Assembly: GCA_965112155.1 (NCBI GenBank)
Contig: OZ218098.1
DNA: 64,000 bases
Source of the DNA: Podarcis liolepis
Taxonomy: Eukaryota
Direction: 5' to 3' (one strand)
Shown: in pieces, positions 36,460-62,980 of the stretch
Numbering within the stretch: the first letter of the stretch is position 1
Layout of the letters: each line of letters begins with the position of its first letter
Made by a program: the position numbers and the translations under genes
Notes under the pieces: model-generated
What the model saw: only the letters and a program-made list of their open reading frames with translations
What the model was told of the DNA's origin: nothing
Databases searched by the model: none

Positions 36460-36623
36460 TATCCCTTGAAAATGTTCTGTTGGATGTAAAGGAACTCCAA
36501 AGAGGTCTCGACTTAACGAAGCGAGAGTACACCATGCACGATCACAACACCATGCTGAAGGAGTTTATTCAGAACAATGAAGGGAAACTGAAGAAGCTGC
36601 AGGATGATGCAAAAATAGCTCAG
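36460..36623 (+). CDS. FMNL2: FMNL2 coding exon (~exon 22, FH2)
   Basis: ctttag|TA TCC...GCT CAG|gtattc; 164 nt; [55 protein letters not shown]. Confidence 0.95.
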
Positions 36624-37609: not shown

Positions 37610-37711
37610 GATGCGTTTGATGATGCTGTGAAGTATTTTGGAGAGAATCCCAAGACAACACCTCCATCAGTCTTCTTCCCAGTCTTTGTTCGATTTGTGA
37701 AAGCTTACAAG
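37610..37711 (+). CDS. FMNL2: FMNL2 coding exon (~exon 23, FH2)
   Basis: ttacag|GAT GCG...TAC AAG|gtaaac; 102 nt; [34 protein letters not shown]. Confidence 0.95.
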
Positions 37712-37721
37712 GTAAACAGAA

Positions 37722-37963
37722 CAGATAGGTAGCCGTGTTGGTCTGCCATAGTCAAAATAAAAAAATTCCTTCCAGTAGCACCTTAAAGACCAACTAAGTT
37801 AGTTCTTGGTATGAGCTTTCGTGTGCATGCACACTTCTTCAGATACTTCTTCAGTTACTTCTTCAGGTATCTGAAGAAGTGTGCATGCACACGAAAGCTC
37901 ATACCAAGAACTAACTTAGTTGGTCTTTAAGATGCTACTGGAAGGAATTTTTTTATTTTGACT
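37722..37963. mobile_element. Penelope-like element remnant (inverted terminal repeat foldback)
   Basis: 97-bp inverted arms 37750-37846 and 37867-37963 (1 mismatch); flanked by the 13-bp direct repeat AAGGTAAACAGAA; same family as 62806-62980. Confidence 0.75.
37867..37904 (+). ncRNA. Minimal type I hammerhead ribozyme motif (Penelope-type)
   Basis: GUAU-CUGAAGA-A-GUGUGC(AU)GCACAC-GAA-AGCU-C-AUAC: stem I, CUGANGA core, stem II, GAAA, palindromic stem III, NUH site; mirror copy on minus at 37809-37846. Confidence 0.7.
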
Positions 37964-38069
37964 AAGGTAAACAGAAGTTCAGTTCACTTCTGTTATTCTT
38001 ACAAATGTGGCCACACTTTCTAACCAAAGGCTTCCGCTGTGGTTTTGTAGTTTCCTTAGCAAATACACA

Positions 38070-38195
38070 GATAACTCAGTCAGTAGAGCATGGGACAGTT
38101 AATCACAGGGTTGTGGGTTTGAGCCCCATGTTGAGTGAAAGATTCCTGCATCGCAAGGGGTTTATGATCCTTGTGGTCCCTTCAATATGATTTAT
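38070..38195 (+). mobile_element. tRNA-derived SINE with CR1-like tail (Squam3-like)
   Basis: A/B-box head TAACTCAGTCAGTAGAGCA...GGTTTGAGCCCC, then TTCCTGCATCGCAAGGGG tail; tail-only copies near 29041-29100, 33092-33158, 54170-54222. Confidence 0.6.
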
Positions 38196-38744
38196 ATGAA
38201 AGAGCCTTAAGGTTCCATCTTTGGGAAACGTGTCCCAGAACAAAAGCCAGATTAAAACTTGCCCAACCTCTTGGGGGCTGCATTCAAATGATGGCTGGGG
38301 CAAAATGAAACAAAATCCAACAGAGGAAAAGAGAAGACAAACGCACACCAGACATCAGGAACACACAGCACTCCTGCTGTGTTACACACATTCAGACATG
38401 CAGAGGACATGAAGGCAGGTACACATGTGGCTGGAAAAATCTGCCATTAGGTGACTTCAAAAGAGAGAGGGAATAAGGCCGTCGGTCACTCCCAGCCATG
38501 ATGGTTATGCTCTCCACTGTCGGAGGCAGTATGCCTTTGAATGACAGCTGCTGGGAATCACAAGAGGACAAATTCTTAAAGAAATTCTTGGAAGAATTTG
38601 CCATACAACAGGAAGCGGCACATCAAAGTTAAACTGGCTTTAATGAATTTGTATTTTGCTGAGTGAGCTAAAAATGAACCCCATTTTTTTGAAGTTGTTG
38701 CGAGCTCTAACGGGTGTGTGTATTTCGTTTAAAATTGTCGATAG

Positions 38745-38843
38745 CAAGCGGAAGAGGAGAACGAGTTGAGAAAAAAGCAACAGCAGGCATTGATGGAAAA
38801 ACTTCTGGAGCAGGAGGCACTGATGGAGCAGCAAGACCAAAAG
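38745..38843 (+). CDS. FMNL2: FMNL2 coding exon (~exon 24)
   Basis: cgatag|CAA GCG...CAA AAG|gtagca; 99 nt; [33 protein letters not shown]. Confidence 0.93.
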
Positions 38844-40612: not shown

Positions 40613-40736
40613 TCTCCGTCTCATAAAACGAAGAGGCAGCAGCAAGAGCTGATTGCAGAGTTAAGACGGCGACAAGTCAAGGACAATAGACATGTGTACG
40701 AGGGGAAGGATGGAGCTATCGAAGATATCATCACAG
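40613..40736 (+). CDS. FMNL2: FMNL2 coding exon (~exon 25, WH2-like/DAD)
   Basis: tttcag|TCT CCG...ATC ACA G|gtaaaa; 124 nt; [41 protein letters not shown]. Confidence 0.95.
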
Positions 40737-62805: not shown

Positions 62806-62980
62806 ACAGATTCAGGTAGGTAGCCATGCTGGTCTGATGCAGTCGAAATATATTTAAATATTGTCCAGTAGCACCTTAGAGACCAACTAAGTTTGTTCTT
62901 GGTATAAGCTTTCGTGTGCATGCACACTTCTTCAGATACACTGAAACAGAAGGTGCTACTGGACAATTTTTTAATTTTTT
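62806..62980 (-). mobile_element. Penelope-like element remnant with a short inverted terminal segment
   Basis: close match to the 37.7 kb element; 18-bp inverted repeat 62860-62877 / 62950-62967; boundaries approximate. Confidence 0.7.
62902..62939 (-). ncRNA. Minimal type I hammerhead ribozyme motif (Penelope-type), sense to PRPF40A
   Basis: minus strand GUAU-CUGAAGA-A-GUGUGC(AU)GCACAC-GAA-AGCU-U-AUAC. Confidence 0.65.

Follow-up and report, generated by a model that had tools for sequence, protein, structure and literature searches.

Typical EN+ Penelope-like elements (PLEs) leave behind copies with 5′ truncation, an inverted 5′ copy and a target-site duplication (TSD), and a CX2-5CxxC linker is common to Neptune and Nematis, according to the accessible part of the survey by Craig et al. 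(2021, PMC8557442). The hammerhead motifs of PLEs have been considered separately: single minimal motifs gave no cleavage in the experiments covered by the available sections of Cervera and De la Pena (2014, PMC4209133), and the motif of Anolis required protein, as excerpted from Frangieh et al. (2024, PMC11167929). A recent preprint (bioRxiv 10.64898/2026.07.22.740005) considers, in its available portion, short non-autonomous PLE derivatives of reptiles, and its supplements may list the family of the insert described here. The behavior of duplicated splice donors is known from another line of work, the available text of which reports that of two strong donors at least 45 nt apart the intron-proximal one took about 100% of splicing in HeLa cells and in vitro, and that the upstream one was active where the downstream one was weak (PMC3413131). 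For the formin FMNL2, the domain order FH2, then WH2/DAD, and the constitutive activity of the protein deprived of DAD are taken from the accessible part of PMC5006604. Our literature search for a PLE or Alu insertion with the TSD duplicating a donor found no direct case, subscription journals lying outside its coverage. Here, we describe a locus in which these subjects meet, namely a short folded-back PLE copy at a 5′ splice site of FMNL2 in the lizard Podarcis liolepis, located within the analyzed stretch of 64,000 nucleotides of contig OZ218098.1 (hereafter the window). The relevant features, in coordinates of the window unless stated otherwise, are as follows.

36460..36623, + strand: FMNL2 upstream exon (FH2), joined to the exon starting at 37610 by 5 raw RNA reads of run X24
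37610..37711, + strand: 102-nt FMNL2 exon with phase 0 on either side, final exon of the Pfam FH2 profile
37709..37721, + strand: upstream TSD copy with donor 37711/37712 in native exon context; 37711->38745 is spliced in an empty-allele relative (8 raw reads)
37722..37846, - strand: 5′-truncated PLE copy (pLTR and first ORF codons), antisense to FMNL2, 99.2% identical over 124 nt to the sequence at the start of the L045 frame
37730..37732, + strand: in-frame TAG, met once the 37711 donor is bypassed
37749..37964, + strand: predicted RNA stem of 98 bp, 37749-37846 with 37867-37964, one C-A mismatch (37781/37932)
37833..37869, + strand: three 12-nt repeats at the foldback turn (repeat family D1), loop 37847-37866 included
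37867..37963, + strand: inverted partial copy forming the second arm; the minimal hammerhead motif on its sense strand (37866-37905) is locked into the stem
37963..38001, + strand: short native intronic inverted repeat (repeat I4), expected from folding to pair with the donor just upstream of it
37964..37976, + strand: downstream TSD copy with duplicated donor 37966/37967 in native intron context; candidate donor
38745..38843, + strand: next FMNL2 exon, the acceptor partner (protein mapping; 8 spliced reads)
40613..40736, + strand: FMNL2 C-terminal exon, assigned to the WH2/DAD region from its place after FH2; would be lost with the premature stop
L044 3582-7833 and L045 2-4252 (G000:C3, about 23.28-23.29 Mb): full-length PLE cluster, tandem and head-to-head, including two open RT/GIY-YIG frames of 926 codons each

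The host gene is FMNL2, as evidenced by the upstream exon being 100% identical to many proteins bearing this label and by five FMNL2 proteins mapping exon by exon over the window, the one from Podarcis muralis at about 100%. The 37610-37711 exon takes the Pfam FH2 profile to its end, with a fragment hit below cutoff that covers positions 340-372 of 372, and the solved FMNL3 chain continues 28 residues past this exon. A preliminary description of the locus had proposed that a stop following this exon would remove the end of FH2 and the DAD; the second half of this proposal stands, while the first does not extend to the FH2 core, because the profile ends with the 37610-37711 exon, and judging from sequence the stop would take away the helix that follows the core together with the WH2 and DAD regions. 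The database FMNL2 model of P. muralis runs three codons into the intron (37712-37720) and is devoid of the 38745-38843 exon, which is likely a gene-model error, given the normal junction in raw reads.

The 13-mer spanning the exon-intron border is present at 37709-37721 and again at 37964-37976, with a spacing of 255 nt, and the window has no other match to it when up to 1 mismatch is allowed, the same tolerance giving a mean of 0.10 matches in shuffled sequence (100 shuffles). The insertion point lies ten bases into the FMNL2 intron, and as the outermost bases of the 13-mer, one per end, also fit the element, the true TSD comprises 11-13 nt. Both donors, identical over the entire U1-pairing span, have 7 of 11 matches to the U1 consensus by simple match counts, with +5G absent. 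If the 37711 donor is bypassed, the phase 0 exon reads through six codons (VNRTDR) into the TAG at 37730-37732, which precedes the 37966 junction by 234 nt and has two later junctions beyond that one, and the exon grows from 102 nt to 357 nt. Thus the anatomy suggested initially, that is, two donors identical from -3 to +10 at a distance of 255 nt, an in-frame stop behind the first of them and later junctions beyond this stop, was confirmed. Two additional donor-like sites are seen within the insert, at 37866 (7/11) and 37728 (6/11), both out of frame, the stronger being placed at the turn of the stem.

The inverted arm, the 98-bp stem between the donors and the match to PLE agree with the foldback retroelement recognized at the outset. 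In the main copy, the start codon of the element is found at 37749-37747 and a minimal hammerhead motif at about 37808-37846 (motif scan). The last pair of the stem involves the -3 base of the downstream donor, and the fold z of the hairpin equals -28. The number of 12-nt units at the turn varies among sister copies, and these repeats are likely template jumps ahead of self-priming. According to folding models, the native mini-hairpin has as its partner the sole donor of the empty allele and the downstream copy of the filled one, and the stem would cut the effective gap between the donors to about 40 nt. The hammerhead was identified by motif scan and a pairing check covering the core, helix I and helix II; an Rfam search gave no hammerhead hit and no family, its 19 matches at E<=10 all being below gathering scores and mostly representing generic microRNA-like hairpins. 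Cutting of FMNL2 pre-mRNA by this ribozyme was considered and judged unlikely, since the hammerhead fold of the sense motif is predicted about 64 kcal/mol above the hairpin, single minimal motifs were inactive in the available part of PMC4209133 and the Anolis motif was protein-dependent in that of PMC11167929.

Search of the genome for GIY-YIG revealed 13 loci, 12 of which bear the repeat of the insert. Over 124 nt, the insert is 99.2% identical to the start of an open frame of 926 codons in L044/L045. In L045, this frame encodes RVT_1 (E=1.4e-11) and GIY-YIG (E=1.2e-5) domains, both over cutoff, and contains DKG and YIDD motifs, a CX4CxxC linker at residue 786, two cysteines ahead of YIG and histidines downstream, in accordance with the CCHH motif. 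Full-length units of L044/L045 are placed in tandem and inverted order, which is the pLTR arrangement of EN+ PLEs. On all features tested (RT/GIY-YIG frame, pLTR arrangement, hammerhead motif and TSD), the sequence of the insert belongs to EN+ PLEs, and the element appears to be Neptune-type, as assigned by motif rather than by tree. It is possible that the L044/L045 cluster is a recent source locus, with the sequence just past the start codons departing from the subfamily of the short copies; no body ORF was found adjoining the short copies in the 5 of 30 examined.

The family is numerous and young. All 40 copies scored in a genome search with the first arm (the best of 458 candidates, the FMNL2 copy included, hence a best-first and not a random sample) are 100% identical over 128-129 nt, and the 26-nt element end has 5,974 exact matches in the genome against 0 for the control. 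Among the 30 top copies, where L024 represents FMNL2, 27 are surrounded by a TSD of 10-16 nt (median 12), and an inverted second arm accompanies 23 by BLAST or 21 by exact probe. For 5,974 copies bearing TSDs of 12-13 nt, an assumed 150,000-200,000 donors, a genome of 1.574 Gb and neither selection nor targeting, duplication of a donor from -3 to +6 is expected by chance 2.3-3.8 times per genome. In keeping with this estimate, a strong donor-like motif, a pattern that leaves out donors of the FMNL2 37711 type, adjoins 23 element ends and is copied by the TSD in 15 of them. Pfam assignment of 22 stop-free frames (at least 20 aa) preceding donor-like motifs gave 0 hits, a weak negative as short exons often miss Pfam, and no second true donor-copying case was found among the 23 donor-like flanks.

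Several observations concern the family as a whole. At least 6 of the 23 donor-like flanks belong to one other repeat (L048, L050, L057, L059, L061 and L066), so that PLE landing repeatedly at one spot of another element, that is, target preference, is possible. Another foldback member of this family, older and 85-94% identical to the insert, lies in the window itself at 62813-62978. The top short copies (L001-L030) almost all end at one place, hammerhead helix I, with possible bias from their choice by similarity; in full-length L045, a pyrimidine-rich, acceptor-like stretch lies at about 1135-1155, just upstream of this stop, and in Drosophila Penelope an intron ends at helix I, as stated in the available part of PMC4209133. 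A spliced or internally started template could give rise to the uniform copies of 125-140 nt. The element end 37721-37752 is abundant in RNA runs X23 and X24 in both directions (about 170-210 reads each), and the T>G substitution at 37742, almost confined there to one direction (18/211 and 47/191), suggests one highly transcribed copy.

Seven of 24 candidate sequencing runs were compared, four of them genomic-type (X1, X2, X3 and X7, from 3 studies with 3 species labels), X1 and X2 carrying the species label of the window and X3 and X7 being relatives. The empty site with one 13-mer is present in 4 of 4 genomic-type runs: one contig each in X2 and X3 goes from 37708 directly to 37964 with a single 13-mer and the insert absent, and in X7 the sequence after 37721 passes to that of 37977 onward. 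X1 contains both alleles. Its filled junction is represented by 54 nt (37692-37745) with 0 differences and a depth of 24, of which 17 letters are unique exon outside the TSD; the flanks of 30 + 24 letters are below the 31-letter bar for bridging. The shared contig of this run ends at 37721 with a depth of 39.8 and has a 169-nt continuation into 37977 onward with a depth of 32, the summed depth of 95.7 over 37693-37706 being composed of the shared, filled and empty pieces. The unique pieces listed for X1 have no differences to the window save one 104-nt side piece, which is also in X2. Among the pieces listed, the filled junction was found in X1 only and the 3′ junction of the filled allele did not appear; as contigs drop variants and these pieces are part of the total, absence of the filled allele from X2, X3 and X7 is not a strict one. 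No depth step precedes the fork in X2 and X7, and the step in that bin of X3 is too large for one allele. The insertion is therefore unfixed under the species label of the window, whether X1 and X2 are haplotypes of one animal or two animals. The single 13-mer of the empty site in X1, X2, X3 and X7 also confirms the TSD proposed in the preliminary description, and the comparison with relatives suggested there gave X3 and X7 without the insert and with one 13-mer. Over 38005-38513 of the window, X1 and X2, which share one sample label, differ at about a dozen substitutions, several of them common to X2 and X3, and the divergence between the filled and the empty haplotype may amount to about 1%.

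Splicing of the empty allele was observed in X24, an RNA run from the relative whose DNA run X7 is empty: 8 raw reads join 37711->38745, 5 join the upstream exon and the depth is about 0 past 37713. X23, with the species label of X7, has an exon depth of 1-2 and no junction among those listed, and X20, which is RNA by guess and carries the species label of the window, has no depth on either exon; both speak neither for nor against the use of 37966. The calculated cost of opening -3..+6 in three folding windows is 4.3-4.8 kcal/mol for the upstream donor and 7.4-9.5 kcal/mol for the downstream one, these values, like those below, being equilibrium predictions with mammalian-temperature parameters. 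The downstream copy is harder to open because the native intronic mini-hairpin now comes after it. The sole donor of the empty allele, at 7.6-7.8 kcal/mol, is equally costly yet functional (8 reads), so that folding does not shut the copy off. Transcripts in which a premature stop precedes a downstream junction by more than 50-55 nt are as a rule subject to nonsense-mediated decay (NMD), and the usual size limit of vertebrate internal exons is about 300 nt. With 234 nt to the junction and two more after it, the product of 37966, if that donor were used, falls under this rule and is predicted to be removed by NMD.

Taken together, the data are best explained by a recent, unfixed insertion of a folded-back PLE end, the TSD of which copied the donor likely by chance, with 37711 likely still acting as the main donor; we assign to this reading a probability of roughly 0.6. 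The GIY-YIG nuclease would have nicked the two strands at the exon-intron border with an offset of about 12 nt, and the RT would have reverse-transcribed about 125 nt of the element's RNA; the cDNA, folding back on itself, would then have primed synthesis of the inverted arm, and the target would have been duplicated during repair. In the carriers, 37711 would be favored as the donor that is made first, keeps the 102-nt exon and is predicted to open 3-5 kcal/mol more easily, whereas the downstream copy would be a minor leak at most, its premature-stop product presumably cleared by NMD. Nothing indicates regulation of the copied donor or selection on it. One may still tentatively imagine that this donor competes well in carriers, the hairpin looping out the insert, which would turn the locus into a segregating, PLE-made poison-splice allele of FMNL2. 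The corresponding rival, in which the origin is equally fortuitous and 37966 takes a substantial share with extended transcripts lost to NMD, draws on the intron-proximal preference among duplicated donors in the accessible part of PMC3413131, the identical U1-pairing span, the native intron context retained by the downstream copy, the stop 234 nt before the junction and the activation of FMNL2 by DAD deletion described in the available text of PMC5006604. We consider it rather unlikely, as the same source PMC3413131, in the part at hand, has the upstream site active when the downstream one is weak and the donor here scores 7/11 with no +5G, folding predicts poorer access to the downstream copy and the 357-nt internal exon exceeds the limit mentioned above. 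If it were true, NMD escapees would encode FMNL2 without WH2 and DAD.

The hairpin might instead upset exon recognition in other ways: the 102-nt exon could be skipped, the intron retained or the stem subjected to A-to-I editing. As the exon begins and ends in phase 0, skipping would keep the frame; nevertheless, the insertion alters neither the exon nor its donor (-3 to +10), the upstream donor is predicted to be more open, and the NF1 cases, as far as the available text of PMC3219598 goes, are exonic or at the 3′ splice site and disease-ascertained, making such a disturbance improbable. The lineage-specific NMD-coupled splicing switch that the preliminary description had raised is permitted by the anatomy but did not survive the comparison. 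X1 has both alleles, X2 under the same label and two relatives have the empty one, many other copies match the first arm exactly, which leaves little time for tuning, and a donor-copying event is expected by chance; the expectation of 2.3-3.8 events combined with the lack of fixation renders an evolved switch very unlikely. An artefact, with the filled allele misassembled or the empty one produced by an in-vitro polymerase jump across the hairpin, deserves hardly any credence either. Hairpins between direct repeats can be skipped in PCR, the flanks of the filled junction (30 + 24 letters) are under the 31-letter bar and its 3′ counterpart is not among the listed pieces, but the junction contig of X1 has 17 unique exon letters, 0 differences and half-to-full depth, the empty contigs of X2, X3 and X7 are long and have their own substitutions, and the structure of the insert is typical of its PLE family. 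We therefore regard the locus as an ordinary young polymorphic insertion, a leaky splice allele at most.

What looked like a regulatory invention thus becomes a momentary view of mutagenesis still under way, driven by a highly active lizard PLE family whose nearly identical foldback copies number in the thousands and whose source frames persist intact in the genome. Should the copied donor be used, the allele could reduce the FMNL2 dose, and a heterozygote would offer a same-cell in-vivo contest of identical donors across a hairpin with the empty allele as control; if it is unused, the insertion is a neutral polymorphic marker. Poison exons and AS-NMD switches of SR-protein genes are fixed, conserved and regulated. 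The FMNL2 allele resembles them in that its alternative donor would add a premature stop upstream of later junctions, and differs in being young and unfixed.

With Neptune-clade PLEs, as presented in the accessible part of Craig et al. (2021, PMC8557442), the element shares RT with C-terminal GIY-YIG, the CX4CxxC linker, pLTR, heavy 5′ truncation, the inverted 5′ copy, TSD and a hammerhead in the pLTR, although the insert itself consists merely of about 125 nt of the element end and the inverted arm. The catalytic core, the extra base before helix II, the G10.1-C11.1 pair, short helix I and palindromic loop 3 are those of the minimal PLE hammerheads described in the available sections of Cervera and De la Pena (2014, PMC4209133), and retention of the uncleaved motif by the copies parallels Poseidon of Anolis, as excerpted from Frangieh et al. 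(2024, PMC11167929); in contrast to the published minimal hammerheads, the sense motif is predicted to be locked in a 98-bp stem within a host intron. De novo Alu/L1 insertions altering splicing (NF1, PMC3219598; MET exon 14, PMC12934576) are likewise recent and target-primed, lie close to a splice site and have a TSD of comparable length, but they represent another element class with proof at the RNA level, and the available portions of these reports contain no exact donor duplication. A further analogy comes from introners and other transposon-derived introns, where, according to the accessible part of the review PMC11282704, a TSD supplies the splice signal beside an inverted-repeat element. 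Those, however, are mostly DNA transposons that enter exons and create a new intron (PMC11282704), whereas in FMNL2 a retroelement has entered an existing intron and furnished it with a second, competing candidate donor.
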